Of a DNA stretch of 64,000 nucleotides, positions 1,438-51,961 are shown in pieces. Both the position numbers and the translations under genes were made by a program. The notes under the pieces are model-generated. The model was not told the origin of the DNA. It saw nothing but the letters and a program-made list of their open reading frames with translations, and made no database searches. This DNA is from a virus (Duplodnaviria; Heunggongvirae; Uroviricota; Caudoviricetes). Where the stretch lies: positions 1 through 64,000 of the IMG/VR virus record IMGVR_UViG_3300028887_000068. The stretch is one strand, 5' to 3'. How positions within the stretch are numbered: the stretch's first letter is position 1; each line of letters starts with the position of its first letter.

Positions 1438-1460
1438 TTCATTCACCACCTAAACATCAA

Positions 1461-5275: not shown

Positions 5276-5288
5276 TAGTATATTATAA
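5276..5288 (+). promoter_or_regulatory. promoter-like motif AGTATATTATAA
   Basis: GTATATTA at 5278-5285, 52 nt upstream of the TTG start at 5330. Confidence 0.45.
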
Positions 5289-9629: not shown

Positions 9630-9645
9630 TTTTGTATACCTTTGG

Positions 9646-10215: not shown

Positions 10216-10222
10216 TGTATAC

Positions 10223-11521
10223 CTACTTCTTGTGGGGGTTGAGATCAGATTTGATGAAATCATCAATAATCTTTGTATGGTGGAAAGCGAGGACTGGCAG
10301 ATCGTAGATGGGGAACCATCTAGCTTCAGCCGCATCATCGCCAGCTGTAATCATATCTTCTTCGTCAGGATCAATCTTTACAAAGAAGGCAGTATCGACA
10401 ATCCGCATACGAGGATCGAACTTGCAGCTGTATGTCTTGATCTGATGGAAGTTGTTAGAGCAGAAATGCAATCCAACTTCTTCAGAGAATTCTCTAGCTG
10501 CGGTAGATTCAAGGCTTGGATCGTTTTCGACATCAAAGAATCCACCCGGAAGAGCCCAGTAGTCTTTATAAGGGTAATCCTTACGGCGGACAAGGAGGAC
10601 TTCTTCGGACTGGTTCACAGCCACGATGTCAACAGTCGCAGAAGGCTCGCCATATGCCTTCATGATAGAATCTTTGAGCATAGCCATACCAGCCGTAGCA
10701 AAGACAGCTGAGCCAGTCTGTTCATTGGCAGGTTCATTGACCTTTATACAATTATCCTTGTATAAAGCCAGTGCTTGATTACCAGCATCGTTGTAGATTT
10801 CGTCAAAGTGTTCGCGGATATACTTGACAGTATTCTTCTTATACTTTTCAAGGAAGATTTCTTCGCCTCGTCTGTATTCCTGAAGACGGTGCTGATGATA
10901 CAGAGATCTGGAAAGAATGTAGTTAGCTGCTGCATCAGGCAATCCGAGTGCCTTGAACTTCTCCGGATGATTTTCAAGGATGAATGGATGCAGTTCAAGC
11001 AATTCACGGATTTTAGTAGAGGAAACCTTCTTTGTAAGCAGGGAGTCGTCACCGAGCTCAAGCCTGATAAACGGCTTGGATTGCGGAACTTTCTTCCAGA
11101 GTGCTTCAAGAGTATCGTATTTTCTAAATCCACGTTCTGCTACGATAAAGTTAGCGTAGTGCATGAGAGCATTGCTGTTACGCCATTTTCCATTGGCGAT
11201 GTTCATTGCCTGATCCATCCCGACAACGATATAAGCATCTTCGATGTTGAGCTTAAGCGTTTCCGTAATATAGTCATACATACGGGCATCTTGTTCCGCA
11301 ATTCTGAAGGACTTATGAAGCGGAGCAAAAGCTCTTCTTACCATTTCCATGCGGTCTTCGTAAGAGGAATTATATACCTTTTCGTCATTGCAGGAAATGA
11401 GAACGATGGCTTCAAAGCCATCAGTAAAGTTCTTGAAGGCATAGTCCAATGCTTTTTCAAATACGGCTCTGTGACCGATAGTGACAGGGTCAAATGCCCC
11501 GCCATAGATCAATGTCCTCAT
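10223..11521 (-). CDS. bifunctional nicotinamide/nicotinate mononucleotide adenylyltransferase with C-terminal Nudix hydrolase
   Basis: N-terminus has the nucleotidyltransferase motif GGAFDPVTIGH (HxGH). C-terminus has the Nudix box GGFFDVENDPSLESTAAREFSEEVGL. ATG at 11521 follows GGAGGG and overlaps the pncB stop (TAATG). Confidence 0.8.
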   Translation of the reverse strand: MRTLIYGGAFDPVTIGHRAVFEKALDYAFKNFTDGFEAIVLISCNDEKVYNSSYEDRMEMVRRAFAPLHKSFRIAEQDARMYDYITETLKLNIEDAYIVVGMDQAMNIANGKWRNSNALMHYANFIVAERGFRKYDTLEALWKKVPQSKPFIRLELGDDSLLTKKVSSTKIRELLELHPFILENHPEKFKALGLPDAAANYILSRSLYHQHRLQEYRRGEEIFLEKYKKNTVKYIREHFDEIYNDAGNQALALYKDNCIKVNEPANEQTGSAVFATAGMAMLKDSIMKAYGEPSATVDIVAVNQSEEVLLVRRKDYPYKDYWALPGGFFDVENDPSLESTAAREFSEEVGLHFCSNNFHQIKTYSCKFDPRMRIVDTAFFVKIDPDEEDMITAGDDAAEARWFPIYDLPVLAFHHTKIIDDFIKSDLNPHKK

Positions 11522-12801
11522 TAATAAGCCCTCCACAAGCGTTGCGAGTTATGTTTCTCAATGATAGTCTTAACGAATTCCGTGATTGCTTCCGGATTAT
11601 CCTTAAGATAAGCAAGCTCGCTCAGAGGCTGATAGTTAAAGTCATTCTTGACTCTGATGATCTGTTCTTCGTCGTCATGGTTGCACTTGCCAGCAACATC
11701 GCTCAGCTTGATAGCCGAGATACCGTTACCGCTATAGAGCTTCATGACCATATTGAGAGGATCACCACCAACGGTATTGGTGAGGAATGTGCCTTGTCCG
11801 ATGGCAACATTGATAACATGAGCAAACATCTTAACGAGCATTACCACATCATCATCCTTCAAACTGTCGCTAAAGCAAGCGGTCTTAGTAAGAGGATTGA
11901 TCTTGAGCTGCTTGTAGAATTCGATAAGGATCTGGCACCAGAGTACTGGATCGCCACTGTCATGGCGAACACCGTCGGCGAGCTTGGCATAGAGCAAGTC
12001 GAAGTCTTCGAGGAAGGCCTTGAAACCATAGGTGTCGCTGAGGAAGATACCGAGATTGCCACGATATTCACGAAGCCATGCATCGAAGGTTGCACGCTGC
12101 GATTCCGAGAGACGGAACTTAGAAATCGTCTGGAGAAGCATGAACATCTGATGGGCCATTGTACCCATGTCCTTCACGCCGTTGATCATTGCCATATAGA
12201 CATTACTTGTACCAACGAAAGCCTTGCAGTTTTCGATAAGGTACTTGACAACGAACATCTGCCAATCAAAGCTTGCACGGCGACGAGTACCGAAGTCGCT
12301 GAGAGTAAACTTGTAGCCCTCGTCGTAGATCTTGTTATACTTGTCTACGGCTTCCTTCAAACGCTTCTTGCCGAATTCATAATCGGTAGGCTGGTCAATC
12401 ATCCACAGTTCCTGAATGATCTCAAGGACGTAGATTTCAAACCAATGGTCACGTTCTTCAAGACCATTAGTCCATACTCCAAGGACATCACCATCACGGG
12501 CGACATGGATGTCTTCACGAGGGAGACGGAAGTCACGGAGCCAACGAATGTAGTCTTCGCTGTACCAATTGTGACTTGCGATAAAGGAGAGTTCATCTTC
12601 TCCGTGCTTAAGTTCACAGAGATGATTGAGCTGATACTCAAGTTCATCTTTCAGGTAAGCAGTCTTCTTACCTTGCGAACGGATTGTCAACTTCCACTGC
12701 GAACGTTCGTTCGGGAACTGGTGATGAAGTACCTGACCCATCGAATACTTGTAAGCATCCGTGTCGGTAAGGTGATTGACGATGCACTTATAGTGACCCA
12801 T
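11521..12801 (-). CDS. pncB: nicotinate phosphoribosyltransferase
   Basis: LTDTDAYKYSMGQ, DFGTRRR, FVGTSN and GVRHDSGDP align motif-by-motif with E. coli PncB (LLDTDAYKLHM, DFGTRRR, FVGTSN, GLRHDSGDP). Confidence 0.85.
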   Translation of the reverse strand: MGHYKCIVNHLTDTDAYKYSMGQVLHHQFPNERSQWKLTIRSQGKKTAYLKDELEYQLNHLCELKHGEDELSFIASHNWYSEDYIRWLRDFRLPREDIHVARDGDVLGVWTNGLEERDHWFEIYVLEIIQELWMIDQPTDYEFGKKRLKEAVDKYNKIYDEGYKFTLSDFGTRRRASFDWQMFVVKYLIENCKAFVGTSNVYMAMINGVKDMGTMAHQMFMLLQTISKFRLSESQRATFDAWLREYRGNLGIFLSDTYGFKAFLEDFDLLYAKLADGVRHDSGDPVLWCQILIEFYKQLKINPLTKTACFSDSLKDDDVVMLVKMFAHVINVAIGQGTFLTNTVGGDPLNMVMKLYSGNGISAIKLSDVAGKCNHDDEEQIIRVKNDFNYQPLSELAYLKDNPEAITEFVKTIIEKHNSQRLWRAY

Positions 12802-12804
12802 GTT

Positions 12805-12990
12805 TTACCTCGTTGAGAGTTTTAGGAGTGTATAGAGAACCATTAGGAACAGTATCACAGGTGTTCCCAGATAGATTATTACTGCAATGAGTATAATCTT
12901 CCACATTGGTAAATGTCTCTTAGGATTTACCAATAGCATAAACAATACTATAAAGAATGTAGCTAGAATAGTCCATGTTATCAGAATCAT
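12805..12990 (-). CDS. small two-TM membrane protein
   Basis: 61 aa, almost entirely hydrophobic. Its ATG overlaps the upstream stop (ATGA). It sits immediately upstream of pncB. Confidence 0.4.
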   Translation of the reverse strand: MILITWTILATFFIVLFMLLVNPKRHLPMWKIILIAVIIYLGTPVILFLMVLYTLLKLSTR

Positions 12991-13094
12991 CCACCGCCTC
13001 CGGTGATGACCATATACACCACCACGGCAATGATTCCAATGAAAGCTAGACAGCCAATACAGCTCTTGCCTTCAGAGGTTGTTTGTTTTTCCAT
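12987..13094 (-). CDS. 35-aa membrane peptide
   Basis: MEKQTTSEGKSCIGCLAFIGIIAVVVYMVITGGGG. AAAGGA RBS. Its stop overlaps the next ATG. Not in the ORF track because it is under 60 aa. Confidence 0.3.
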   Translation of the reverse strand: MEKQTTSEGKSCIGCLAFIGIIAVVVYMVITGGGG

Positions 13095-13149
13095 GTTGTT
13101 TCCTTTTGCAAAAGAAATAAGTATATGACCATTTAGCCATATACTGTAA

Positions 13150-13187
13150 AAAATAATATACGGCTTTACTTAGAGTAAAGCCGTATG
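13150..13187 (-). terminator. terminator for gene 13310-14326, adjacent to promoter-like motif
   Basis: Hairpin cggctttacttagagtaaagccg, followed on the minus strand by TATATTATTTTTT. The minus-strand motif GTATATTA (13154-13161) lies 60 nt upstream of the peptide ATG. Confidence 0.45.
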
Positions 13188-13309
13188 ATTTATGAATAAA
13201 ACTATTCACGCCCAGCTTTACCCAGAGAGTAAAGCGGAAGAAGAAGCGAGAAGAATGATTTGATTCATATAGCAACCACCAAAGAGAAGAAGTATGTTTC
13301 ATTTTAAAG

Positions 13310-14326
13310 TTAGTACGGGATTGCTTGGATTGAGCCGTCTTCGTTAACTTGAGGCGGTTGCGGATCGGACGATGCCGGAGTAGACACACGCTGAGTGGTT
13401 TCGCCATCGCTATGAGCATGCTCCAATGCTCCAAGAGAATCCAAGGCAAATGTCATGTTAGACGGATCCTCTTCAGATCTTGGCGCTACTGTGGCTATCA
13501 CACGAATCGCATCAGAAACAGATTGTGGCATGTGTCTGCTAAACATTGTATCAAGCCGATCGTGGATTTCTCTCACAAGACGTTCAGTATGGACTCGGTT
13601 AAGAGCATTGTCTCTAATAACGCTCTCAGCTTCTCTGAAAACAAGATCAGAACTAAGGGTTTGATTGGCTGTCCTGAAGGTATGCTCGTTGTTTGCAGTA
13701 TCCAGCGTAGTATTCCGCAAGATGTTATTGCTTAAACTCACCCAGTTGTTCATAAGAGAATATGCCGTTGCGTAATCGTAAGACACTTCCGGGCTGAGAG
13801 TACGTCCGTTTCTAGATTCAGTTAAGTCAGTTACAGGAACGGTGATTTGTTGCAGACTTTCTTCTGTTGCTCGAATGTCCGGATCTTCATCACGCAAGTC
13901 TTGCCATTCAGCAGTAACGTTATGGCGGTCTTCTTCTTCGGTTATATCCGCCACCTGATTTGCACATGGAGCTAAAATCACCTTCTTCAGAGTCTCTTCC
14001 AGAATTCCGAAAGCGTATTTACTTATATCACCATCCGCGAAATGCTTTGCATAAGCATTCTCGCTCTTAGTTTTAATGGGGCCATTATCAGATTCTGGAT
14101 AGAAGACAACAGAACCCATGTCAGTTAATAACACACGGTTGTAGATATAGCAATCATTCGTGAATCTTTGAAACTCGATGGGATAATGGTGTTCACCGGA
14201 AACGTTTAATATGTTTCCGCTAATCTGATCAAACTCGGGTATAAGACATGCAAAGGACTTATTACTGGGTCTATCTATGAAACAAGAGACAAACCCGATA
14301 GTATTAAGAATTGTTAGACCAGTCAT
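13310..14326 (-). CDS. hypothetical protein (possible extended member of paralog family)
   Basis: 338-aa ORF. N-terminus LTILNTIGFVS resembles the family N-motif. The C-terminal half is low-complexity S/T/D-rich. Confidence 0.5.
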   Translation of the reverse strand: MTGLTILNTIGFVSCFIDRPSNKSFACLIPEFDQISGNILNVSGEHHYPIEFQRFTNDCYIYNRVLLTDMGSVVFYPESDNGPIKTKSENAYAKHFADGDISKYAFGILEETLKKVILAPCANQVADITEEEDRHNVTAEWQDLRDEDPDIRATEESLQQITVPVTDLTESRNGRTLSPEVSYDYATAYSLMNNWVSLSNNILRNTTLDTANNEHTFRTANQTLSSDLVFREAESVIRDNALNRVHTERLVREIHDRLDTMFSRHMPQSVSDAIRVIATVAPRSEEDPSNMTFALDSLGALEHAHSDGETTQRVSTPASSDPQPPQVNEDGSIQAIPY

Positions 14327-14736
14327 TCCATTACTCCTACCTTGTATTTTCTAGCTATTTCGATTGCGCCAAAGGCTTGTTTCTTTAGTGCCTCAACACG
14401 ATTACGAGTTAAAAGTCTATGGCGATCTTCTTTCGTATTGCTCCATCTTCGTGTTGCCGGATCATAGATAGACATAGAAGTTACAGACCAGATAGTAGGC
14501 TCGTACATGCTCTTATCTTTTCTGGACACCTCTGAGAAGACAAATGTGGCGTTGTTGGTATGGACATCAACCGTATAGCAATCAAGACCGGGTATTCCCC
14601 ACATCTCTAGAGCAAGCAAATCTAGCATACGCAAGATTTCGAAATGCTCTTCTTTTGTTGCCATACGGTCTTCTTGTCTTCTACAACGCTCCATGTCCTC
14701 TTTGAGGTTAACTACGCTGTCATCAAGCTCGCTCAT
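14323..14736 (-). CDS. paralog family A member 1
   Basis: N-motif LLALEMWGIPG. C-motif AFGAIEIARKYK. Confidence 0.55.
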   Translation of the reverse strand: MSELDDSVVNLKEDMERCRRQEDRMATKEEHFEILRMLDLLALEMWGIPGLDCYTVDVHTNNATFVFSEVSRKDKSMYEPTIWSVTSMSIYDPATRRWSNTKEDRHRLLTRNRVEALKKQAFGAIEIARKYKVGVME

Positions 14737-15136
14737 GGCCTATACCAACTTCTTTCGCAAGCTTCTCTAGAAATCCGATGTTCCACTTCATTATACTATT
14801 GGGTGTTTCGTCATTTAGACTCTTGCGAACAAAATCATATTTCCAGTCTGTGTTTAAATGAATAAAGTCCGGTTCTTTTACTATCTCCGAATACGAATAC
14901 AGACGGAGCATACCCTCGCTACTTTCCCGAACTAAGAGCATAGCAGTATTGGTGCCAGGCCCGAAACCAGAGAAGGCGAAAGCCGCATCTTCCTTTCTCT
15001 CGAAGCAAACTCTATCGTTCATTATAAATCTAGTATGCCGCCCTATATCTTCAGCGCTTATAGCATTATTGAATCTTCTATGCAACAACTCAGCGCCCAT
15101 AGTTGCTACTAGTGTTCCAAATCCTGATGGACTCAT
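14723..15136 (-). CDS. paralog family A member 2
   Basis: N-motif LVATMGAEL. C-motif NIGFLEKLAKEV. Confidence 0.55.
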   Translation of the reverse strand: MSPSGFGTLVATMGAELLHRRFNNAISAEDIGRHTRFIMNDRVCFERKEDAAFAFSGFGPGTNTAMLLVRESSEGMLRLYSYSEIVKEPDFIHLNTDWKYDFVRKSLNDETPNSIMKWNIGFLEKLAKEVGIGHERA

Positions 15137-15153
15137 TAAACCTCCCTGTTAGT

Positions 15154-15549
15154 TTATAAAAGTTCATATCCTTCATTCGTTAATCTACTGCCCCCATTTG
15201 TACGATTCTCCATTAAGCCTTGCACAAGGACAATCAATTTACTTCCGCAGACCAAATGTAACGGCTCAAGTTTTAGATCACGGCTTCGATTACACCATAG
15301 ACAGCAGCCCTCGTCTTCGCCACCGTTCCAAGTAAAATTGGTGTAAGTGCTTATCTTAATGCCGTCCTTGCTCTTCCAGAGATTTACAGCTGCGGATCCT
15401 AACCCTCCAACAAAAGTGAAATCAAAGTCAATGAAATTCAATCTGTTAAGTGAAGATTCCACGTCACGAACACCTTCTCCGACGGTATCATAGCTATCTA
15501 AGAATAATCCTAAAGTCAAAAGAACGTGAGATACAAACTCAGTCGTCAT
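15154..15549 (-). CDS. paralog family A member 3 (degenerate C-terminus)
   Basis: ATG at 15549 follows AAGGAG. N-motif HVLLTLGLFLD. No clear FGxxE motif. Confidence 0.45.
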   Translation of the reverse strand: MTTEFVSHVLLTLGLFLDSYDTVGEGVRDVESSLNRLNFIDFDFTFVGGLGSAAVNLWKSKDGIKISTYTNFTWNGGEDEGCCLWCNRSRDLKLEPLHLVCGSKLIVLVQGLMENRTNGGSRLTNEGYELL

Positions 15550-15973
15550 CGTCTTCTCCTTCGTTCTTTGAGAAGTACATAAGCATCTCAGCATTGCCTA
15601 GTACAAGATTCATGAGCTTTTCGTCGGACAATTCAGCGATGTTGTGGTCACAGATATCGTGATCTCCAGACATAAGATTACCGAGTCTGCTCATGCGTGA
15701 ATAAGAAGAAAGAGTGATTACGGTATGGTGTGTCCCGTCGGCAATAACTTTATTCGACGTATCAAACAAGAAAGCAGAGTCTATGAAACCATACAACATT
15801 CCTCTCATAAAAGAAGCGGTATGTGTCTTCACATGATTCTCTATCTGTCCCGCTATGATCTCCACAGCATCCTCGTCTTCGGTTATACCGATTCTCGTTC
15901 TTACGTAACCCATAGATTCAAAGTCATACCCGAGAGATAGGAGTATCATGCTAATGTACTTGGTGTGTCTCAT
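15539..15973 (-). CDS. paralog family A member 4
   Basis: N-motif LLSLGYDF. C-motif LVLGNAEMLMYF. Acidic tail. Confidence 0.55.
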   Translation of the reverse strand: MRHTKYISMILLSLGYDFESMGYVRTRIGITEDEDAVEIIAGQIENHVKTHTASFMRGMLYGFIDSAFLFDTSNKVIADGTHHTVITLSSYSRMSRLGNLMSGDHDICDHNIAELSDEKLMNLVLGNAEMLMYFSKNEGEDDDD

Positions 15974-16334
15974 GGTACTTCCTCCCGTAATACAGTAATG
16001 TTTCAGCTTGCCCGAACAATACCCTCATCAATTTCTCAATGCGTATTTCCATAACGGTTTCATTATTGAAGTCATAATTGTTCTTTACAAAATTGTTGGT
16101 GCTGAATTCACGCGAATATGTGTTCAGCTTATGGGTACCGCTTGGAACATAGGCTATGACGACTGTATCCGTAACCCCGAAGATCCTACCGTTGAAGTGG
16201 CAACGCTTACAGTCCAACATGCTTCTTGCGACTCGCCTCAAGCTTTCTTCCATACTTGCTTCTGTGACGGTGCCTTCATATGTATTGTGAAGGCCCATCA
16301 GCAGCATCATTCTGTAACATCTAAGAGGCATCAT
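15951..16334 (-). CDS. paralog family A member 5
   Basis: N-motif LLMGLHNT. C-motif VLFGQAETLLYY. Confidence 0.55.
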   Translation of the reverse strand: MMPLRCYRMMLLMGLHNTYEGTVTEASMEESLRRVARSMLDCKRCHFNGRIFGVTDTVVIAYVPSGTHKLNTYSREFSTNNFVKNNYDFNNETVMEIRIEKLMRVLFGQAETLLYYGRKYHETHQVH

Positions 16335-16707
16335 TGTCTAATCCTCTCCTTATTATCATAAGAGATTCTAGATTTCCGAATAAGCACCGTACGAGATCAA
16401 CTTCTTGCATGTCCTTTATCGGTTCTTCTCTAGCATCCCCATCACGGGAGAGCAAAGTCGTAGAACCAGATGTAGAACGTCTAGAAAATGTCTCTATCCG
16501 GTATCCGTATTCTTTGTGCTTAGTGATGAAAACTGCCGTGTCGTCATGATAGGCGATAAACTTGAATCCAAAGATCGTACGCTTCATTGCCAATAATGAC
16601 ACGACTCTGGCAGTATCCATAACACTACTGATACTGTTCGCTGGCAGACCTAAGCGATGCTCCTGTCCTAGAGTGAGGAGAATAATTACGCTATCGAGAA
16701 GCTGCAT
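16321..16707 (-). CDS. paralog family A member 6
   Basis: Starts MQLLDSV. N-motif LLTLGQEH. C-motif CLFGNLESLMII. Confidence 0.55.
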   Translation of the reverse strand: MQLLDSVIILLTLGQEHRLGLPANSISSVMDTARVVSLLAMKRTIFGFKFIAYHDDTAVFITKHKEYGYRIETFSRRSTSGSTTLLSRDGDAREEPIKDMQEVDLVRCLFGNLESLMIIRRGLDNDAS

Positions 16708-17098
16708 GGGCTATTCTTCTCCCTACGGACAAGGTGCATTCTATATTTCCAAACATGTATCTAGTGAAATCCTCTTTCGTCATGTAGTATATATTAACGC
16801 CTTTGGCATCATCTTTACAAGAGAGCATGAAATAAGCTCCACTAGTAGTGAATCTCGAAAAGGTCTTTAAAAGGAAGCCCTCATGTCGGTAGTCTTTAAT
16901 CCTTTCTCTGATGATGTAAGCGGTTATATCGCTCACCCCGTATATGTTAGGCGAAAACCCAAGGCATGTGAAGTCATTGAACCATGTGATTAAGCCACTA
17001 GCGATAGAATTAACACCGCTAGTATTGATCAATATGTGTCCTGCACCATTGTCTAGCCCCAGAGAGAGCATCGTGCTTATGCTATCGAGCAGCCGCAT
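16691..17098 (-). CDS. paralog family A member 7
   Basis: Internal ATG at 17098 (MRLLDSIS, parallel to MQLLDSV of member 6) follows GGGGAA. C-motif YMFGNIECTLSV. Confidence 0.5.
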   Translation of the reverse strand: MRLLDSISTMLSLGLDNGAGHILINTSGVNSIASGLITWFNDFTCLGFSPNIYGVSDITAYIIRERIKDYRHEGFLLKTFSRFTTSGAYFMLSCKDDAKGVNIYYMTKEDFTRYMFGNIECTLSVGRRIAHAASR

Positions 17099-17471
17099 TA
17101 AAGTTTCCCCGATGGTTTTGCCAAAGCCGTTCAATATAGCCGAAGACAAACTTGCAGTATTCATAGCTTTCAATGCCATTCAGCAACTTGTGCCTAAAGA
17201 AATCTCTAGGAATCTTCCTGTTGCCGATCAAGTCTCTGTCGGCAGATACATAGAAAGAATCACCGTCCCTTTCGAACATGAAGACTTCATCATAGTGTCT
17301 GCCGTCTAAAAGCAGCTCAGATGAGAAATATCCAGTGTGGTTATCGTCAAACCATTGCTGAACCCTCTCATCAGCAGCGGAGACCGTAGGCCCAATCTCT
17401 TCACCGCCAAGAGGGAATCCTGCTCCATTAGTCAATAATACTTTCCAACAAAATGTTTTAAATAAAGCCAT
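17082..17471 (-). CDS. paralog family A member 8
   Basis: N-motif LLTNGAGFPLGGEEIG. C-motif FVFGYIERLWQN. Confidence 0.55.
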   Translation of the reverse strand: MALFKTFCWKVLLTNGAGFPLGGEEIGPTVSAADERVQQWFDDNHTGYFSSELLLDGRHYDEVFMFERDGDSFYVSADRDLIGNRKIPRDFFRHKLLNGIESYEYCKFVFGYIERLWQNHRGNFNAAAR

Positions 17472-17835
17472 AAGTCGTTCTCCTGTGTTTATCTAAAAGG
17501 TATTCATCAAACGCGAATATGAGCCTTACAAAATCCGTTTCATCAATTCTGGAAAAGCTGGTGACACGATGAGCATCGTCCACTTCTCTGCCTAGACTGC
17601 CGTCGTCGATCTCCATGAAGAAATCGCACTTTTTGCTGTCATAGTACAATGACAAAACTGATCTTATACAAAGGTCAAACATCACAGCGGAAAAGTATCC
17701 TTGAGAGTCACTGTTAAACCAGTTCATCACAAAATCGAAGGCTCCGGTGGCTGTTTCACCGACTTCTCCAGCGGTATACGGGAAACCGAATCCGCTTGTT
17801 AACAAAATCTTAAATGCTGTTTCAGGCTGCAACAT
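17458..17835 (-). CDS. paralog family A member 9
   Basis: N-motif LLTSGFGFPYTAGEVG (closest to member 8). C-motif LIFAFDEYLLDK. Confidence 0.55.
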   Translation of the reverse strand: MLQPETAFKILLTSGFGFPYTAGEVGETATGAFDFVMNWFNSDSQGYFSAVMFDLCIRSVLSLYYDSKKCDFFMEIDDGSLGREVDDAHRVTSFSRIDETDFVRLIFAFDEYLLDKHRRTTYGFI

Positions 17836-18301
17836 TTGGTAACATCCCCAGCTTACGGCTGTATTTCAAAAGCTCCTCAACTTGTCCAAAGAGGATCTTA
17901 GAAAACTTATCCCGTTCTCTTACGTTGAAGTTCTCGCCATGATCTCCGAAAACAAAGTCATCATCGAAACCAAAGTCCTCGTTACCACTGCTGTTAACAA
18001 GAACGCCATTTAGAATTTCGAATCGCGAATATGTAGAAACAGCATCGCCTACTTCGTACTCTTCCGGTTCGTAGTAGTTTACGAGCGTCGAACTTGGGAA
18101 GCCATACAGACTTCCGCAAAGATCAACATTAGACTCATCCTCCATGATCCTATTCACGACCGCTGAAGCACGATCCACAAATTTGTTAAGATCAACTTCA
18201 TCACCACTGTCAACATACTCTAAGATGGTTTCATCATCAACATCGATACCGAGAACAGCGGAAGAGTAGTAAATATGGTCAAATATACCGTCGTTTGTCA
18301 T
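17822..18301 (-). CDS. paralog family A member 10
   Basis: ATG at 18301 follows AGGAGG. N-motif SSAVLGIDV. C-motif ILFGQVEELLKY. Confidence 0.5.
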   Translation of the reverse strand: MTNDGIFDHIYYSSAVLGIDVDDETILEYVDSGDEVDLNKFVDRASAVVNRIMEDESNVDLCGSLYGFPSSTLVNYYEPEEYEVGDAVSTYSRFEILNGVLVNSSGNEDFGFDDDFVFGDHGENFNVRERDKFSKILFGQVEELLKYSRKLGMLPNVAA

Positions 18302-18302
18302 T

Positions 18303-18758
18303 TTAACCTCCTGACAAGTAAACATCTTCTGGAAGAACTAATGGAACGATTTCCGGATCTCTCGCTGCATGAGCCCAGTGTATCTTCATATCTCCCATCT
18401 CTTGCTCCAATGCTCCAATCATGGTTGTGATAACCATGTTTAGGGTTTCATTGATACTTTTTTGGTCATTGATATTGTTGGCTACTATGCGCGGTTTGTA
18501 GTGTCTCACTCCGTCTACATAGATAAGCCTTCGTATAGAGATTACACAATCGTCTTCGCTCCTATACAAGTCCAAAGGATTTCCAAAGAGAAGCGTAACG
18601 TCATAGCTACAATGTCTGTTAACAGCTATATTATTACGGAAATTATTGGCGCATTGCCGAATGGGATGAGAGTCAGTTTCACATGCAAATGCTGCCATCG
18701 TCTTGGCTATAATATAGGCATGATGCATGACTGTTACAGCTATTTTAAAGCTCATCAT
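18303..18758 (-). CDS. paralog family A member 11 (divergent)
   Basis: C-terminal MIGALEQEM. The N-terminus is divergent and Cys/His-rich. Confidence 0.45.
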   Translation of the reverse strand: MMSFKIAVTVMHHAYIIAKTMAAFACETDSHPIRQCANNFRNNIAVNRHCSYDVTLLFGNPLDLYRSEDDCVISIRRLIYVDGVRHYKPRIVANNINDQKSINETLNMVITTMIGALEQEMGDMKIHWAHAARDPEIVPLVLPEDVYLSGG

Positions 18759-19155
18759 AAACCTCGATAATTTGGGGTGTGAGACCTCGTTTTCTGTACT
18801 CTAGGGCTACATCTTCTAATAGCCCTATGCACAGCTTGGCTAGATCTGTCTTTTTCATGACAGTGATTCTACGTTCAACGTAGTCATCGTGTTCCGTACT
18901 GTGATTGAGCTTCATAAACTGGCCACATGCAACAAGGGCAGTATAAGTGCTGATCTTATGATCATCAATCATGAAAGCATAGTAATCCATGAAGAATGGC
19001 TCTTCCGGAAGAACTACGAAGTTAATGCAGCGTGTACTTGCCAAGACTTCGAGTCTGATGCTCTCTTCAGGGGCAGTAGTCATACCCATAGCAAAGAGAG
19101 CTTTACATGCCTCCAGCTTTCCTTTAAGATATTCAGTCATAATCCTCCTTTGCAT
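18745..19155 (-). CDS. paralog family A member 12
   Basis: N-motif ALFAMGMTT. C-motif LCIGLLEDVALEY. Confidence 0.55.
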   Translation of the reverse strand: MQRRIMTEYLKGKLEACKALFAMGMTTAPEESIRLEVLASTRCINFVVLPEEPFFMDYYAFMIDDHKISTYTALVACGQFMKLNHSTEHDDYVERRITVMKKTDLAKLCIGLLEDVALEYRKRGLTPQIIEVYDEL

Positions 19156-19548
19156 CTAAGATATAATATCCCAAAGAAAACCGTTCTTTCTGTCCAACTT
19201 TGCTATGCCTTCCATTAGCCCAATGATAAGCATCACTATCCTTCTCTTATCGAGATGCTCAAGCTGCTGATAGCGTATGTCCTGTGTTCCTTGTATAAAA
19301 TTGTACATCTGATAAAGAACAGTGCCGTGGTCAAGCTGTGGCATACACGCTTTTGCCTCAATTTGCGTTGCTGTGCAAAAGGCAAGATTGGATACAGTTA
19401 TTACTGTATTGTTAAAGATGTAGTCACGGTCTACGAAAAAGGTAAGATGACCGCTGCTTTTTAATCCCATAGACTGAGCAGCGCTCTCTATGTATTGATA
19501 ATTCGCTACACAAAGAGCACCATTTCTCATAGCATCTTCGGTATTCAA
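19156..19548 (-). CDS. paralog family A member 13
   Basis: N-motif AAQSMGLKS. C-motif LIIGLMEGIAKL. Confidence 0.55.
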   Translation of the reverse strand: MNTEDAMRNGALCVANYQYIESAAQSMGLKSSGHLTFFVDRDYIFNNTVITVSNLAFCTATQIEAKACMPQLDHGTVLYQMYNFIQGTQDIRYQQLEHLDKRRIVMLIIGLMEGIAKLDRKNGFLWDIIS

Positions 19549-19988
19549 AACGGTATATCCCCCTCTGGAATATTCCCATTCCAGTTAATGTCTTTTAGGC
19601 GGTCTATCTCAGCTAATCTTTCCATGAAGCCAAACAGTCGCTTGCTTATTTTCTCTATCGTAAGTTCAGAGTAATGAGCATTGAGAAAGTCGCCTTGGCC
19701 CTTTTCCAGATGAAAAAGCAGACTCGGGTATCTTTCATCAATGTTATCTGCAAAGTCAGTATACGAATTGAGGTATGGGCCACTTATAAGAAACGCAGGA
19801 TTCCTCAGTTCCAGATATCCCCTAGTAGGCAAAAAGGGAATGATTTGTCCCATTACGTTAGTAAGACCCATAGACTCGCATAGACGAATACAGACTCTAG
19901 ACATATCTTCGGCGTCACAGAAATCAGTCTCCTCTGCGAGTGGCTCATGCACATATTCGTACTGCGTTAAGTATGTGGTGAAATCCAT
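19545..19988 (-). CDS. paralog family A member 14
   Basis: N-motif LCESMGLTN. C-motif RLFGFMERLAEI. Confidence 0.55.
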   Translation of the reverse strand: MDFTTYLTQYEYVHEPLAEETDFCDAEDMSRVCIRLCESMGLTNVMGQIIPFLPTRGYLELRNPAFLISGPYLNSYTDFADNIDERYPSLLFHLEKGQGDFLNAHYSELTIEKISKRLFGFMERLAEIDRLKDINWNGNIPEGDIPF

Positions 19989-20383
19989 AGGTTCCTGTCT
20001 ATCTTGTTGAATTCGTGTTTAAAGACTTCTTCTAACGCGCCAAAGGCTGTAGCTAGAAGTTCGCTCGGTTCTACGGATTCCATTTCGAAGCAGTCATAGT
20101 CGTCGATTTGAGATGCTGTTTCATACCTAGGTCTATACAAGCCGAGACGTACCTCTGGCTGTGTCGTTTCTACTTTCTTGAAGTTTAGTTCTGTAAAAGA
20201 CCAGAGATAGTCCTGATCCTCTATGAAGACAATATCACCGGGAAAGGTAGTATTGAGCTGTATGCCGTATGATATCGCCACCTCAGAATATTCGTCTTCG
20301 TCTCTGTTAAAGGTTCTCTCGTCAAAGAGAAGTGATTTAACGGTTGAATCAAAATTGTAAAATTCCATCAGAGAATTCTCCAT
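19967..20383 (-). CDS. paralog family A member 15
   Basis: N-motif AISYGIQL. C-motif TAFGALEEVFKH. Confidence 0.55.
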   Translation of the reverse strand: MENSLMEFYNFDSTVKSLLFDERTFNRDEDEYSEVAISYGIQLNTTFPGDIVFIEDQDYLWSFTELNFKKVETTQPEVRLGLYRPRYETASQIDDYDCFEMESVEPSELLATAFGALEEVFKHEFNKIDRNLWISPHT

Positions 20384-20730
20384 TGTGAGCGTATGTTTCT
20401 CACGGTTTCCATCATGCCATATACATACCAGAGCATATCGTCAATGTTATCTGGAACGCAATAGTCCGGTATCTTCAATCCAAACACAGATCTCCATATG
20501 GAATTGGTTTGAAGAATGAACGAGTCATCAGACCAATCGGTAAATGTAAAGTCAAAGAAGCTTCCATCATTGAGAGTATTGGGGTCTTCGCCACTAGCGC
20601 GAAGACCGCTTTCATCGTCTCCGAAGAATGTAAGATCGCTCCAACTATCGTCGTCATATCCAATACTTCTTAGGAAGGCATAGCAAACGCCCCTTTCATT
20701 TCTAGTCATTACTCCTCCAGTTAGTTGCAA
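20368..20730 (-). CDS. paralog family A member 16 (start may be the ATG about 21 nt downstream)
   Basis: N-motif FLRSIGYDD. C-motif YVYGMMETVRNI. Confidence 0.5.
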   Translation of the reverse strand: MQLTGGVMTRNERGVCYAFLRSIGYDDDSWSDLTFFGDDESGLRASGEDPNTLNDGSFFDFTFTDWSDDSFILQTNSIWRSVFGLKIPDYCVPDNIDDMLWYVYGMMETVRNIRSQWRIL

Positions 20731-21028
20731 CAGCTTTCACAACTTCTGCAATACCAAACAGGTATGCTATTAAAACATCATTACTAATGGCGCAGCAGAA
20801 AGCTTGAGCTGTCCTTTTATCTCTTATAACATGCGAACTTGTAACAATGCGCAAACCACCCAAGCCGTCAGACAGGCCGAAGTCTTCATTTATCACGTCA
20901 CGACGCTCGTCCATAAAGAACATATAGTCGTCTGTGATGCCATTATCTTCAAATCCCATTATCTTTAGTATTTCATACGGTCTGAAGTCAGTTGACTTCT
21001 CTTGTACGGACTCTCTGCTAAAACTCAT
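20702..21028 (-). CDS. paralog family A member 17
   Basis: Internal ATG at 21028 forms an ATGA overlap with the upstream stop and follows GAGGGT. N-motif ILKIMGFED. C-motif YLFGIAEVVKAV. The longer ORF-track start at 21127 would overlap the neighbour by about 100 nt. Confidence 0.45.
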   Translation of the reverse strand: MSFSRESVQEKSTDFRPYEILKIMGFEDNGITDDYMFFMDERRDVINEDFGLSDGLGGLRIVTSSHVIRDKRTAQAFCCAISNDVLIAYLFGIAEVVKAVATNWRSND

Positions 21029-21384
21029 TCTACCCTCACGGGAAGATAAACTCCACCAAAAGTCCTTAACAACTCGAAGTATCTTTTCAGTCTCTTTTCG
21101 AGAATTCCGAACATAGCCGGTGTACATTCTTCTATACGCTTCTTTCGTATAATGCTTCTCGGAGAGTCATCTACACAAGTATACTTCTCCGGAAGAACAT
21201 TGACGTTGTAATAGAAGTGCATTGTCTTGCAGTATATATCCATGCCAACATTAAGTCGTAATTCTGCATTAAACTCGTCACGAAGACTTCCAAATGCAGC
21301 GAACGAGTTATCAAATCTGACTAGTTCAAAGCCAAGTGACAACAAGGCTCTGAACCCAAATTTTTCTGCGTCGCTTCCTGTCAA
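21025..21384 (-). CDS. paralog family A member 18
   Basis: N-motif LLSLGFEL. C-motif AMFGILEKRLKR. Confidence 0.55.
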   Translation of the reverse strand: MTGSDAEKFGFRALLSLGFELVRFDNSFAAFGSLRDEFNAELRLNVGMDIYCKTMHFYYNVNVLPEKYTCVDDSPRSIIRKKRIEECTPAMFGILEKRLKRYFELLRTFGGVYLPVRVE

Positions 21385-21716
21385 GGATTCCTCCTTATTC
21401 GTTCTTCCTGTCTCTTTTCTATCACTCCATAGATAGCAATAGCCAGAGATCGGAGTTCTTCCGTTCCTTTTATCTTGTAATACGGCTTATACTTTTCTTG
21501 TTTTCCAAATTCTTCATTGAGCCATACAGTATGCTTAAATAAATCTTTGCTAATGCCAGTAAAGTAATAATTAAATTCATACATGCCGTCTACTGGCGGA
21601 CGAAACTGTAACGCATCACCCGCAAAGAGAAGGCCACTACCTGCTACTGGCACAAAACCCATAGCCGCAAAGATCTTTATTATGTCTGCTGGCCCATGAG
21701 CGCTCATTATAATCAT
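21381..21716 (-). CDS. paralog family A member 19
   Basis: N-motif FAAMGFVP. C-motif AIYGVIEKRQEE. Confidence 0.55.
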   Translation of the reverse strand: MIIMSAHGPADIIKIFAAMGFVPVAGSGLLFAGDALQFRPPVDGMYEFNYYFTGISKDLFKHTVWLNEEFGKQEKYKPYYKIKGTEELRSLAIAIYGVIEKRQEERIRRNP

Positions 21717-22024
21717 AGGTCTCTCCTGAACGGCTTGTTCATTCGCACTTCGAGCAAGCTGAAGAAGATAAAGACTATCTCTTCTTCATTAGTTCCTACG
21801 AACTGTGTTACGTTGCCATGAAGCTTAAAGGCTTCCTTAGCGCCTTCGCCAAAATCCGGTCTATACTTTCCGGACTGATTGCTGAATATAAACTCCACTA
21901 GACGGTCACTGGAGTATTCTTCAAGCACTTTCAAGCGAAGATCATCGTTTCCTGGTGTCATAGCTGTCATGTATCCCATCGAGTGGAACATAGAAACAAA
22001 GTCAGCTCCATTTATTCGTCCCAT
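21713..22024 (-). CDS. paralog family A member 20
   Basis: N-motif FHSMGYMT. C-motif IFFSLLEVRMNK. Confidence 0.5.
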   Translation of the reverse strand: MGRINGADFVSMFHSMGYMTAMTPGNDDLRLKVLEEYSSDRLVEFIFSNQSGKYRPDFGEGAKEAFKLHGNVTQFVGTNEEEIVFIFFSLLEVRMNKPFRRDL

Positions 22025-22329
22025 TTCTTACTCCAGTCATAGCCCATATAGTATTGTGTAGCACTTATCTTTTCCAGATGACCAAAAACAATCTTCAGAA
22101 AATCCTCTTTTAATATAAAAGAATCTGTGTCGATGTCATGATCACCTCTTCTAAAAGTAAATGTGCCGGGTGAACATAAGGCAACTTGTGTACATGATGT
22201 TATACGTATACTATTTGTATATGCGAAGTGAAAGTTTATTCTTGGTATAATAAGCGGCGTGTTTATGAAGGCAGCGTCGGCTCCAACTTCATAGCCGAGA
22301 GATTTAAGCGTCCATCGATAAAAGAGCAT
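22012..22329 (-). CDS. paralog family A member 21
   Basis: N-motif LKSLGYEV. C-motif IVFGHLEKISAT. Confidence 0.55.
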   Translation of the reverse strand: MLFYRWTLKSLGYEVGADAAFINTPLIIPRINFHFAYTNSIRITSCTQVALCSPGTFTFRRGDHDIDTDSFILKEDFLKIVFGHLEKISATQYYMGYDWSKKWDE

Positions 22330-22645
22330 AAGAGTCCTTCTCTATTAGAATTTGTACGGCACGTTCCATAGTGCCAAATAAATTCGCAACAAAATTCTCT
22401 CTAGGATCATATGAATACAGCTCTCGTTTGAGTTCGCCATTGTACCTATAGAGCATTCCTACATCATTATCAGAAAAGTCGAACCTCATTTCCACACTTC
22501 CAAATTCAAACTTAAATAGGAAGAAGTATCTTTTGAAAGCCGAGGTCAGACCAAAAGAAGCTGCGCAAAGAGCTATGCCCTCGGCGGACATTAGCTCTAC
22601 TCCACGCCTCTCTCTGTCTGGTCTTAAGTTAGGCATAAACGTCAT
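22304..22645 (-). CDS. paralog family A member 22
   Basis: N-motif CAASFGLTS. C-motif NLFGTMERAVQI. Confidence 0.55.
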   Translation of the reverse strand: MTFMPNLRPDRERRGVELMSAEGIALCAASFGLTSAFKRYFFLFKFEFGSVEMRFDFSDNDVGMLYRYNGELKRELYSYDPRENFVANLFGTMERAVQILIEKDSYALLSMDA

Positions 22646-22992
22646 ATAATATAATCCTTTTTGTACTTATAAGCTGTTTCTAAACATCCGATAGCCAAAG
22701 TCGAGAAGTCGCACTGTACAAACCCTCCGATCGGATAGGACGAGTGCGCATAGTCACCGCACTTTGGTTTACAACCATATCTTCCATAAACATGAATCCT
22801 ATACAACGGATACGGATTTCTTCCCGTTGTGTTAAGCCTGATTAGAGTATCACCAAGACTCCTTCTAAAGTCTAAACTGTATGTTCTACAGCTGTAATCG
22901 CCTTGTCTTGTGTTGACGAAACACAAAGAATCCAAAACCTTGGCTGCTTCGGTTATAGTTATCAAAGGTGAGTATCTTGATTCTTCTGCCAT
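22642..22992 (-). CDS. hypothetical protein
   Basis: 116-aa ORF. Stop-start overlap with the downstream gene. Cys-rich. Confidence 0.5.
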   Translation of the reverse strand: MAEESRYSPLITITEAAKVLDSLCFVNTRQGDYSCRTYSLDFRRSLGDTLIRLNTTGRNPYPLYRIHVYGRYGCKPKCGDYAHSSYPIGGFVQCDFSTLAIGCLETAYKYKKDYII

Positions 22993-23066
22993 ACATTTCT
23001 CCTTGTATACTCTTTATTATATACTATGAAAAAATAAAGCTCATGGACGAATCCATGAGCAATTCT

Positions 23067-23495
23067 TTAGTCGTAGCGTCCTGCGCTAATGAGACGACTT
23101 CCTAGCTGTGCTATCTTTGAAACATATTCCTGATATTCTTTTGCACCGCCGCTGAAGTTATACCTGTCTATTCTTACTTCAATGGAGTCATAGAAAGAGA
23201 TAAGGAGATATAGATCATGCGCATACTGGGTGATAGTTATACGACCAATGTCATCATCTTCCTTCTGGTAATTGATGCATAAGGTTGTAGGCATTTCCTT
23301 ACTGAAATTGGCATGAAGGAAATACGTATTATTGAAGATATTAGGTTTTCCGAAGAAATCCATCAGGTCTTCTATCTTGAGACTTTTTAAGTAGTCTTCA
23401 TTCTTCATTGTCATCTTCAATGCTTCTTCGTATCTAGCATGACTACAGTCTTTGTTAAATTCGTCAAGTCCAGTTAGGGTTTCCTCTAAGAGCAT
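23067..23495 (-). CDS. hypothetical protein
   Basis: 142-aa ORF. Confidence 0.5.
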   Translation of the reverse strand: MLLEETLTGLDEFNKDCSHARYEEALKMTMKNEDYLKSLKIEDLMDFFGKPNIFNNTYFLHANFSKEMPTTLCINYQKEDDDIGRITITQYAHDLYLLISFYDSIEVRIDRYNFSGGAKEYQEYVSKIAQLGSRLISAGRYD

Positions 23496-23544: not shown

Positions 23545-23904
23545 TTAGAGCCATATAAGAATGGTTCGATCTCGTAGTTCTACATTATTGAATGGAAATT
23601 TCATTTCTTTTGTAAAAATGCGCATTATAGAATTTAAGAAATTACTTGTGTCTGTATAATCCTTAAAGGACGTTCCTAGCAAGATATGAATCTCCGTTCT
23701 TAAGGGAGATTTGGAAAACTCGTATAAGAACTTGTGGAACATTAATTGAACACAGCCGTTAGCTTGTATGACTTCGCAAGCTTTATTCAAGTATCTTTTC
23801 TTAAATTCTTCTATAGTCGTAACAGCGTCTTTGTTATGAATAAGCGTCAACTGTTCGAATGTCATCATTTGTCTTTTCTCCGTTTGGATTTGAATTGAAG
23901 CCAC
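23545..23904 (-). CDS. hypothetical protein
   Basis: 119-aa ORF. Confidence 0.5.
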   Translation of the reverse strand: MASIQIQTEKRQMMTFEQLTLIHNKDAVTTIEEFKKRYLNKACEVIQANGCVQLMFHKFLYEFSKSPLRTEIHILLGTSFKDYTDTSNFLNSIMRIFTKEMKFPFNNVELRDRTILIWL

Positions 23905-24128
23905 ATTATCAGATCATGGAACTCGTCTGTAACATAGACAAGAGACCATGCGTCTTTCTTCTTCTTAGGTTCATATACCATCCAACCGTGATAAATATTA
24001 AAAGTCACAGACCATCCATGCCACCATCCAACGATCATGGCAGTAATGATGGAGAAAAGTGCGGAAAACGAGAAGACCGCTACAAGAGTTAGGGCTACCG
24101 CTACTATAAACAAGAATACGTCTAGCAT
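23865..24128 (-). CDS. small two-TM membrane protein (holin-like size)
   Basis: 87 aa with two hydrophobic helices and a basic C-terminus. Confidence 0.45.
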   Translation of the reverse strand: MLDVFLFIVAVALTLVAVFSFSALFSIITAMIVGWWHGWSVTFNIYHGWMVYEPKKKKDAWSLVYVTDEFHDLIMWLQFKSKRRKDK

Positions 24129-24193: not shown

Positions 24194-24838
24194 TTATGCC
24201 TCGTCGCGGAACTTAGCGAATTCGTCATCGATGGAAGCATCCTTTGTTTCAACTTCATCGATATCGTCTTCGCGAAGAATTTCCTGAACGTGTTGTTTAG
24301 CCTTAACGCTATGTTCATATCCGGCGATTTCTTCTTCAATAGCCTTGAGCGTAGCATTGTCAGACGGGCTGATGAGCTGTTCAAGAGTCTTATTAGCCTT
24401 GAGGTTATCAATGATGAACTTGAGCTGTTCTGTACGGCTTTCGAGGCTGTTCTTCTTTTCATTCATGATACGAAGATTGCGCTCGGCTTCGGTCTTGAAT
24501 CCAAGAGCTGTATTATACTGTTCTTCGTATGTCTTGACCTGGCTTTCCCAGTCTTTGTACTTCTTGAAGAACTTCTTGGACTTGTCTTCATCTTCCTTCA
24601 AGAGAGCCTTAGCCTTTTCCTTGTACATGTCGCGATTCTTCTTTGCGTCTTTGAGCTTTTCATCAACTTCATCGAAATTAGCGAAGATTCTTTCAGAATC
24701 CTTCTTATACTTGTCGAACTGGTTCTGATATTCTTGCTTGGAATACTTGAGACGCTTTTCCAAGTCGATCGTTTCTTCAAGTTTGGAAGAGAAGTGGAAC
24801 ACGTTAATCTTTATCCATTTGATGATTGCTTTAAGCAT
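24194..24838 (-). CDS. coiled-coil protein
   Basis: 214 aa, K/E-rich heptads throughout. Confidence 0.55.
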   Translation of the reverse strand: MLKAIIKWIKINVFHFSSKLEETIDLEKRLKYSKQEYQNQFDKYKKDSERIFANFDEVDEKLKDAKKNRDMYKEKAKALLKEDEDKSKKFFKKYKDWESQVKTYEEQYNTALGFKTEAERNLRIMNEKKNSLESRTEQLKFIIDNLKANKTLEQLISPSDNATLKAIEEEIAGYEHSVKAKQHVQEILREDDIDEVETKDASIDDEFAKFRDEA

Positions 24839-32715: not shown

Positions 32716-32730
32716 CCTGATAGTATATTA
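32716..32730 (+). promoter_or_regulatory. promoter-like motif CCTGATAGTATATTA
   Basis: GTATATTA at 32723-32730. The 13-mer cctgatagtatat recurs at 59973. Confidence 0.45.
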
Positions 32731-32734
32731 TTTT

Positions 32735-33275: not shown

Positions 33276-33288
33276 TTGTATATTATAC
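33276..33288 (+). promoter_or_regulatory. promoter-like motif TTGTATATTATAC
   Basis: GTATATTA at 33278-33285, 39 nt upstream of the ATG at 33317. Confidence 0.5.
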
Positions 33289-51857: not shown

Positions 51858-51925
51858 CCTCTTGCATCTAATGGTGCAAGGGGGAGTATTTTATAAAGGT
51901 GGATCCAAGATCCACCTTTTATTTT
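51858..51925 (+). terminator. tandem terminator hairpins
   Basis: ccttgcatctaatggtgcaagg, then aggtggatccaagatccacct followed by tttatttt. Confidence 0.6.
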
Positions 51926-51961
51926 ATGGAACTCCCTATTAGAACTAAACAAGGATCTAAC

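Follow-up and report, generated by a model that had tools for sequence, protein, structure and literature searches.

Within the 64,000-nt stretch of phage DNA analysed here (IMG/VR record IMGVR_UViG_3300028887_000068, positions 1 to 64,000; the window, meaning this whole stretch), the minus strand carries from 13310 to 22992 an array of 24 consecutive genes whose products, as judged from their sequences, are one paralogous family with a common scaffold and a very divergent middle. A preliminary description had placed about 22 members at 14323-22645. All of the consecutive minus-strand open reading frames (ORFs) that it listed exist, and the count rises to 24 with the gene at 22642-22992 and with the product of 13310-14326 (m00; 338 amino acids, aa), of which only the N-terminal approximately 133 aa belong to the family. 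Start sites were refined by gene calls on the public contig L001 (Logan SRR9008933), the identity of which to the window was checked. With these starts, the small members are soluble proteins of 103-159 aa, instead of the 105-165 aa first given.

Three contigs bear the array. One is the window itself; the other two, L002 (ENA ERZ27257202) and L004 (a scaffold from a wolf-gut metagenome), are referred to below as the sister phages. The three arrays are syntenic and hold 24 (window), 26 and 27 copies; the longest contig with array genes measures 242 kb. The members of the window are listed below from the first gene of the operon onwards. Bit scores were obtained with leave-one-out hidden Markov models (HMMs), n/300 is the number of a member's own shuffles reaching that score, and dN/dS is the ratio of non-synonymous to synonymous substitution rates.

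22642-22992 (-): m23, first gene of the operon, 116 aa; 5.3 bits, 2/300; C motif AIGCLET; dN/dS 0.18, 0.12
22304-22645 (-): m22, 113 aa; 7.6 bits, 1/300; dN/dS 0.09, 0.11
22012-22329 (-): m21, 105 aa; 12.1 bits, 0/300; dN/dS 0.43, 0.26
21713-22024 (-): m20, 103 aa; 9.7 bits, 1/300; dN/dS 0.10, 0.04
21381-21716 (-): m19, second AlphaFold model, 111 aa; 9.5 bits, 0/300
21025-21384 (-): m18, TTG start, 119 aa; 9.2 bits, 0/300; dN/dS 0.16, 0.03
20702-21028 (-): m17, start from gene call, 108 aa; 7.2 bits, 3/300
20368-20709 (-): m16, nearest relative m17, 113 aa; 6.8 bits, 3/300
19967-20368 (-): m15, 133 aa; 10.2 bits, 0/300
19545-19988 (-): m14, 147 aa; 24.8 bits
19156-19548 (-): m13, TTG start, 130 aa; 20.2 bits; 61.5% identity to its L002 ortholog, dN/dS 0.45
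18745-19140 (-): m12, 131 aa; 25.1 bits
18303-18755 (-): m11, the weakest member, 150 aa; 1.8 bits, 17/300; C motif MIGALEQ, Gly of the N motif replaced by Ala
17822-18301 (-): m10, 159 aa; 21.5 bits
17458-17835 (-): m09, 125 aa; 15.8 bits; 30% identity to m08 (E = 3.8e-11)
17082-17471 (-): m08, 129 aa; 9.8 bits, 0/300
16691-17098 (-): m07, start ambiguous, approximately 126-135 aa; 28.0 bits; not called on L001, an uncalled ortholog present in L004; 34% identity to m06 (E = 1.9e-12)
16321-16707 (-): m06, 128 aa; 37.2 bits
15951-16334 (-): m05, first AlphaFold model, 127 aa; 35.9 bits
15539-15973 (-): m04, 144 aa; 25.6 bits
15154-15549 (-): m03, 131 aa; 11.7 bits, 0/300
14723-15136 (-): m02, 137 aa; one or two further paralogs in the sister phages (46% identity)
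14323-14736 (-): m01, 137 aa; 4.6 bits, 3/300; dN/dS 0.14, 0.17
13310-14326 (-): m00, 338 aa; family domain 13928-14326, 10.4 bits, 0/300 (N-terminal domain)

In a MAFFT alignment of the 24 products (A1), an N-terminal and a C-terminal motif are co-linear in every sequence. When five paralogs found only in the sister phages are added with hmmalign, the N-terminal consensus reads h-x-x-h-[LM]-x-[ST]-[LM]-G-h-[ED] and the C-terminal one [ED]-[DEK]-h-h-(+)-h-h-[FYI]-G-x-h-E-x-h-h-K (h, hydrophobic). The Glu of the C motif is present in 29/29 of these sequences and is invariant across all 66 ortholog sequences too, and the Gly three residues earlier is found in at least 90% of the 24 products and in 27 of the 29 sequences. 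Mean column identity among the 24 paralogs is approximately 15%, the middle region being very divergent and the best pair 34% identical.

Compositional chance as a source of the motifs is ruled out on three grounds. Seventeen of the 24 members score above all 300 of their own shuffles with leave-one-out HMMs, six are reached by one to three shuffles, and m11 (18303-18755) is matched or passed by 17. The five paralogs of the sister phages, which lie outside the training set, are detected by the A1 profile with E values from 1e-5 to 1e-14. Finally, strict regular expressions retrieve the N motif in 15/24 members (2.5% of shuffles; 3/141 other ORFs of the window), the C motif in 17/24 (0.4% of shuffles; 2/141) and both motifs together in 10/24 (0.008% of shuffles; 0/141). 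The two-motif architecture first noticed by eye is thereby confirmed by alignment, HMMs, motif enrichment and held-out paralogs alike.

Core members (14723-19988) connect to one another in an iterative HMM search; the distal members (13310-14736 and 19967-22992) are tied to them weakly, with leave-one-out scores of 5-12 bits. Next to the array, ORF 23067-23495 was rejected as a member, its score being reached by 101/300 shuffles, as for noise, and ORF 23545-23868 is borderline. No further member was found outside the array within the window. As m00 is the sole member fused to another part, its C-terminal extension (approximately 205 aa, acidic, 13310-13927), which yielded no significant Pfam, PHROG or PDB match, could hint at function.

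Structures were predicted with AlphaFold2 on the family alignment for m05 (15951-16334) and m19 (21381-21716). The m05 model (predicted local distance difference test, pLDDT, 82; predicted template modelling score 0.75) displays helices at residues 3-12 and 28-40, three strands and a long helix at 99-125, and that of m19 (pLDDT 72.7) a helix at 9-18, four to five strands and a helix at 84-109. In both models, the Gly of the N motif closes the first helix, and the C-terminal helix, which has the highest pLDDT, carries G-x-x-E in its first half. The motifs are thus predicted to occupy the same topological positions, which supports a single family. The predicted fold would be a two-layer alpha/beta sandwich, made of an N-terminal helix, an antiparallel sheet with or without an extra helix, and a long, largely hydrophobic C-terminal helix. 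Since the helix around it is mostly hydrophobic, the Glu of the C motif is probably at least partly buried in such a fold, and it may tie both termini together or form a common site. No transmembrane segments were predicted in the array products, so that their being membrane or secreted proteins is rejected. They are mostly acidic (pI 4.1-6.3 for 19/24) and the small members weigh approximately 12-18 kDa.

The structural neighbours of the predicted fold are, with their scores, the FP domain of Fbxo7 (7.1), YjbR (6.5), DR_1245 (6.4), the AvrPphF chaperone (6.3), Tll0839 (6.2), CyaY/frataxin (5.8-5.9) and a dozen type III secretion chaperones (4.4-5.5); the type III secretion chaperone and YbjN-like matches were not recovered with the m19 model. 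The predicted fold is that of a generic small helix-sheet-helix sandwich, a kind that mostly serves protein binding, and no homology can be claimed from these neighbours.

Every member of the window possesses one-to-one orthologs in the two sister phages, with 61-98% amino-acid identity. The dN/dS values (Nei-Gojobori) range from 0.03 to 0.46 per member, with medians of 0.21 and 0.17 for the two sister phages, and are raised (0.36-0.46) for m06, m07, m11, m13, m19 and m21. As all of these are well below 1, each member is a real gene under purifying selection, and the idea of non-coding ORFs is rejected. The conserved scaffold with a hypervariable core proposed in the preliminary description holds for the comparison between paralogs, the middles of which diverge strongly, but not as ongoing diversification. 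Indeed, one-to-one orthologs under purifying selection speak against any continuing hypervariation, and variable sites among orthologs amount to 15-20% in the motif regions and 24% in the middle. Read from these sequences, the divergent core is an old divergence between paralogs and not a current diversification.

Neighbours in the array are more alike than in random order (0 of 20000 permutations equal), and the closest pairs (m06-m07, m08-m09 and m04-m05; 28-34% identity) are all adjacent. The pairs m06/m07 and m08/m09 had been regarded as recent duplicates; they are among the closest, but at 30-34% identity, with both copies kept in the sister phages and no DNA-level repeat detected within the array, so that a recent duplication or a DNA-level repeat is rejected. 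The likeness of adjacent members, together with the absence of any remaining DNA-level repeat, shows that the array arose by tandem duplication long ago. Copies have also been gained or lost, as both sister phages hold one extra member between m19 and m18 in addition to the m02 paralogs listed above.

The lineage is rare. Of the 23 hits to the family profile among 1.84 billion representative proteins, 20 are members of the three contigs, the other three being two bacterial secreted repeat proteins (matching the 24-residue C motif only) and one spurious repeat protein; the family was not seen in bacterial genomes in this search. All 24 members gave no hits at E <= 0.05 in Pfam-A and PADLOC and nothing significant in PHROGs and NCBIfam (a single hit in each, at E 0.021 and 0.023, respectively), and the family gave nothing below E 0.5 in a PDB sequence profile search and nothing below E 0.38 in a BFVD Foldseek search. 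The array DNA and the first 25 kb of the window have no match among GenBank phages. Scans of IMG/VR with the PspA-like neighbour and with the nicotinate phosphoribosyltransferase (NAPRTase) described below, and of GTDB genomes with the latter, found nothing. A scan of Joint Genome Institute metagenomes with the first array gene gave a single 2.3-kb contig, and homologs of the PspA-like neighbour form four clusters in 5.8 billion proteins, all of the same lineage. Four samples carry this lineage (SRR9008933, ERZ27257202, ERZ28658840 and JGI 3300031992). By these searches, the family is confined to one rare lineage of uncultured gut or rumen jumbo phages.

Three elements delimit the array as a transcription unit:

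23039-23060 (-): intrinsic terminator closing the preceding operon; 9-bp stem and T-run, 100% identical in two sister contigs
23015-23025 (-): promoter-like element AGTATATAATA, ahead of AAGGAG and of the ATG at 22992
13158-13186 (-): intrinsic terminator closing the array operon; 13-bp stem and T-run, within a conserved structured non-coding stretch

The sequence TTTTTTCATAGTATATAATAAAGAGTATACAAGGAGAAATGTATG comes after the terminator at 23060-23039, upstream of the first array gene. The 74-nt leader with AGTATATAATA and AAGGAG is 100% identical in the three phage variants, the number of synonymous substitutions per site (dS) of neighbouring genes being 0.2-0.75. Within the array, 20/23 junctions are overlaps of 1-26 nt and the remaining three are gaps of 1, 15 and 17 nt, instead of the overlaps of 4-25 nt first given. 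A GGAG-type Shine-Dalgarno-like sequence precedes most genes, lying within the gene before, and starts are ATG (22 genes) or TTG (two genes). Given the terminators at both ends, the leader with its promoter-like element and the overlapping junctions, the array constitutes one operon of approximately 9.8 kb, in agreement with the single transcription and translation unit proposed earlier.

The motif GTATATWAT within the promoter-like element occurs seven times in the window against 0.71 expected, an approximately ten-fold excess, mostly in intergenic positions ahead of genes:

5278-5286 (+), 13153-13161 (-), 23016-23024 (-), 32723-32731 (+) and 33278-33286 (+): copies after a T-run, 30-50 nt before a start codon and in the right orientation
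11369-11377 (-) and 46386-46394 (+): other copies

The early promoter of phage AR9, used by its virion RNA polymerase, is AAATATATATTAT-(6N)-G with the core TATATTAT (PMC5312081). The core of GTATATWAT equals this TATATTAT core, and the motif is, on sequence grounds, a candidate phage promoter. Moreover, the window encodes a multisubunit-type RNA polymerase beta-like protein (51899-56542 (+), 1547 aa), the C-terminal two thirds of which match jumbo-phage RNA polymerase beta PHROGs; its identity to the counterparts from jumbo phages of the PBS1, Staphylococcus, Listeria and phiR1-37 types is approximately 30%. From the shared promoter core and the presence of this protein, we reasonably infer, by analogy, an early expression of the array operon.

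On the same strand, the array is followed downstream by the terminator, a short hydrophobic ORF and then, at 8862-12801 (-), a complete Preiss-Handler set for the synthesis of nicotinamide adenine dinucleotide (NAD), so that the adjacency to a NAD operon pointed out in the preliminary description is verified:

11521-12801 (-): NAPRTase
10223-11536 (-): NMNAT fused to Nudix
9646-10215 (-): isochorismatase-family, nicotinamidase-like protein
8862-9629 (-): NAD synthase

These four enzymes are 93-99% identical between variants at the amino-acid level, with dN/dS of 0.03-0.13. Phage NAD synthesis counters NAD-depleting defence. Gene clusters for NAD synthesis have been described in gastrointestinal jumbo phages (PMC11662467), and both resource supply and signalling interference are mentioned in a 2026 jumbo-phage review (PMC13282480). 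Upstream of the array are small genes without known function and the gene of a PspA/IM30-like protein.

Tandem arrays are already known from jumbo phages. Phages G and 121Q contain arrays of more than 30 duplicated, 'very similar' genes (Hua et al. 2017, PMC5646251), and in Bacillus phage G a zinc ribbon was reported to have expanded to approximately 35 copies (Iyer et al. 2021, PMC7824862). As in the arrays of G and 121Q, one small gene has been expanded here by tandem duplication within a jumbo-phage lineage, to 24-27 copies. However, copies are 'very similar' there, whereas the present ones share approximately 15% mean identity and no DNA similarity, and each has its own conserved ortholog. 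No sequence relationship to those arrays was detected, as the profile found nothing outside the three contigs in its 1.84 billion representatives apart from the three repeat proteins. The array described here thus differs in being ancient and extremely diverged, with constraint on each copy, one translationally coupled operon and no detectable relatives. Among other runs of many small co-transcribed genes with unknown or anti-host function, T4 internal proteins combine a short conserved terminal signal with an otherwise unrelated body, and the SPO1 host-takeover cluster consists of many small genes that are not paralogs. Here, members are predicted to share the whole fold and not only a signal peptide, and the geometry of the T4 cleavage motif does not fit. 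The sandwiches of the FP domain of Fbxo7/PI31, frataxin/CyaY and YjbR-like proteins exhibit 2-9% sequence identity, have unrelated biology and lack the two motifs of the family. Our literature search retrieved general accounts of arrays in jumbo phages, but no description of a family like this one. As no test of membership placed the proteins in a known family, they cannot be filed under any of those considered.

Taken together, the data speak for a fixed set of small soluble proteins that have one scaffold in common, are expressed together and are each maintained in their own right, and such a repertoire argues for many different, non-redundant partners. We tentatively favour, with somewhat less than even confidence, the reading that these proteins are binders of host proteins, serving takeover or counter-defence. 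The N and C motifs would probably be a structural clasp of the scaffold or a common docking site, and the sheet and loops, different in every paralog, would give each member its own binding partner. An AT-rich promoter of the kind that serves virion RNA polymerases in related phages would drive the joint production of all members, probably early, and the fixed panel would then sequester or redirect different host proteins. The timing, the binding activity and the host targets are inferred; we favour the binding of host proteins because the promoter is of the early type and the fold small, acidic and binder-like, and because of the neighbourhood and the gain and loss of copies between strains. 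The arsenal of decoys or inhibitors against host defence suggested in the preliminary description is likewise plausible in view of the promoter, the small acidic soluble proteins, copy-number variation and the neighbourhood. On the whole, the interpretation in that description is partly supported, and its observation of the array itself is confirmed. A bolder version of the host-binder reading, which we consider a long shot, is that all 24-27 proteins dock through the Gly/Glu clasp on one hub, e.g. the FtsH-like AAA+ protease encoded in the window or a different machine of the phage, each capturing a different host protein with its own sheet and loop surface, in the manner of a substrate-adaptor panel. 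If true, the phage would possess a hard-wired adaptor panel removing many host factors, e.g. defence sensors, at once.

Several observations weigh against host-protein binders on a common scaffold. Homology between the two halves of the array lies in the twilight zone and is marginally supported by sequence, as hhalign of independent half-array profiles gives a global P = 2e-5 and a probability of 53%, with a local alignment covering the C motif only. The early timing derives from a promoter-like motif and from the analogy to a phage whose RNA polymerase beta is 30% identical, and GTATATWAT is also similar to a -10 box of a host. An arms-race arsenal would not usually be expected to show such strong purifying selection and such stable one-to-one orthology, although dN/dS is raised in the six members named above. 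Searches of Pfam, PHROGs, NCBIfam, PADLOC, PDB and BFVD yielded no homolog that ties any member to a function or a partner. Finally, from its sequence context, the invariant Glu within a hydrophobic helix could also mean catalysis or ligand binding instead of a role in the scaffold.

Among the alternatives, the members might be dedicated chaperones or adaptors, each for one phage protein, whether a packaged-and-ejected cargo or a substrate or regulator of the FtsH-like protease; we regard this as unlikely. Type III secretion class I chaperones, which hold effectors, are small, mostly acidic proteins that have a helix at the C-terminus and share very little sequence identity among themselves, a portrait which the array products (approximately 12-18 kDa) resemble in each of these respects. 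One-to-one orthologs under purifying selection also suit fixed, co-evolving phage partners, and candidates for such partners, the FtsH-like protease and virion proteins, are encoded in the same window. However, none of the 24 members matches CesT or YbjN in Pfam, and no sequence match links them to the class I chaperone/YbjN-like sandwich. Moreover, class I chaperone genes normally adjoin those of their effectors, whereas here 24 genes follow one another without any partner gene in between and with no effector genes adjacent, and the window contains no secretion genes.

A role as small enzymes or ligand binders, in which the Glu and the conserved Gly and Ser/Thr would form a common site and the variable parts set substrate preference, appears quite improbable. 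The strict conservation of this Glu in paralogs and orthologs, in a mostly hydrophobic helix beside a near-invariant Gly, is what such a site would look like, and the adjoining operon is metabolic. Nevertheless, it is the single invariant polar residue, no sequence match to any enzyme family was obtained (Pfam, PHROGs, NCBIfam, PADLOC, PDB), most of the structural neighbours are binding modules and not enzymes, and 24 co-expressed isoenzymes would be unusual.

We give little credence to virion-internal or ejected proteins of the kind of T4 internal proteins and phiKZ inner-body paralogs, in which the terminal motifs would be packaging signals or prohead-protease sites. Conserved termini around a variable body do recall the T4 loci, the conserved Glu could be a P1 residue, and PHROG virion proteins are encoded elsewhere in the window. 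Prohead cleavage motifs are L/I-x-E in T4 and S/A/G-x-E in phiKZ. The array pattern is instead G-x-h-E, with the Gly four residues before the cleavage point and not three, and a variable residue three before it. Furthermore, the motif sits in the most confidently predicted, hydrophobic helix and not in an exposed linker, and the promoter-like element is of the early and not the late type.

The least convincing alternative, a polyimmunity or superinfection-exclusion array in which each paralog neutralises a different toxin of competing bacteria, phages or host abortive-infection effectors, has in its favour the tandem paralogous small cytoplasmic proteins (alpha+beta, as in bacterial SUKH and Imm loci) and the copy-number variation, but it is very improbable, as the flanks (NAD enzymes, a PspA-like protein and small unknown proteins) include no toxin partner or toxin-delivery gene, no SUKH, Imm or other immunity family is matched in Pfam or NCBIfam, and the context is that of a phage with a virion-type RNA polymerase, with no lysogeny genes seen within the window and a family absent from the bacterial genomes searched.

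Among the tandem gene expansions of jumbo phages, the present one is unusually informative, as the age of the copies, the selection acting on each and their co-expression from one conserved promoter argue for 24 distinct jobs rather than for genome padding. The family belongs to protein 'dark matter', with a confidently predicted fold, two sharp motifs and, among 15 billion proteins, relatives only within one rare phage lineage. If its members turn out to be inhibitors or adaptors directed at host proteins, they would form a ready-made library of small binders on one scaffold and a guide to the host pathways that a jumbo phage must neutralise.

Some further features of the locus deserve mention. 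The non-coding stretch 13090-13310 (-), from the last stop of the array to the next gene, counts 230 nt and is 98% identical in the three variants, the dS of flanking genes being 0.2-0.75. Its predicted folding is strong (-41.4 kcal/mol over 163 nt, z = -5.97) and gives two hairpins, the terminator being one of the two. The stretch has no match in Rfam and may act as a small RNA or as a regulatory element. Small hydrophobic ORFs stand on both sides of the array operon: the product of 23865-24128 (-) measures 87 aa, contains hydrophobic stretches and gives a weak hit to the Ldr toxin in Pfam (E 0.005), and that of 12986-13093 (-) is a hydrophobic peptide of 35 aa, for which a gene is called on each of the three contigs.

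The two bacterial proteins retrieved by the profile, P0001 and P0020, are encoded side by side on the bacterial contig ERZ25071132 (L005 10001-15190) and have hydrophobic, signal-peptide-like N-termini followed by 5-12 copies of a unit of approximately 67 aa ending in EEFVKQVFGNMEHL. Their status as whole-domain homologs is rejected, because the match of this unit to the array (hhalign probability 92%) is limited to 24 columns of the C motif, and it is therefore treated as a motif resemblance. At the sequence level, the likeness may reflect convergence or an ancient common helix motif.

Elsewhere in the window, four genes together make up a membrane-related set unusual in a phage:

46-1437 (+): SPFH/flotillin-like protein
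24194-24838 (-): PspA/IM30-like protein, below the Pfam cutoff
42813-44777 (-): FtsH-like AAA+/M41 protease
45261-46124 (-): patatin-like phospholipase

The RNA polymerase beta-like ORF (51899-56542 (+)) is adjoined by another giant ORF at 47528-51844 (+), the 1438-aa product of which has no Pfam or PHROGs match. Lastly, four long ORFs, at 70-1449 (-), 11494-12816 (+), 34559-36049 (+) and 38251-39945 (+), run antisense to the well-supported flotillin-like, NAPRTase, NrdD and virion-protein genes, respectively, and are probably non-coding mirror ORFs.

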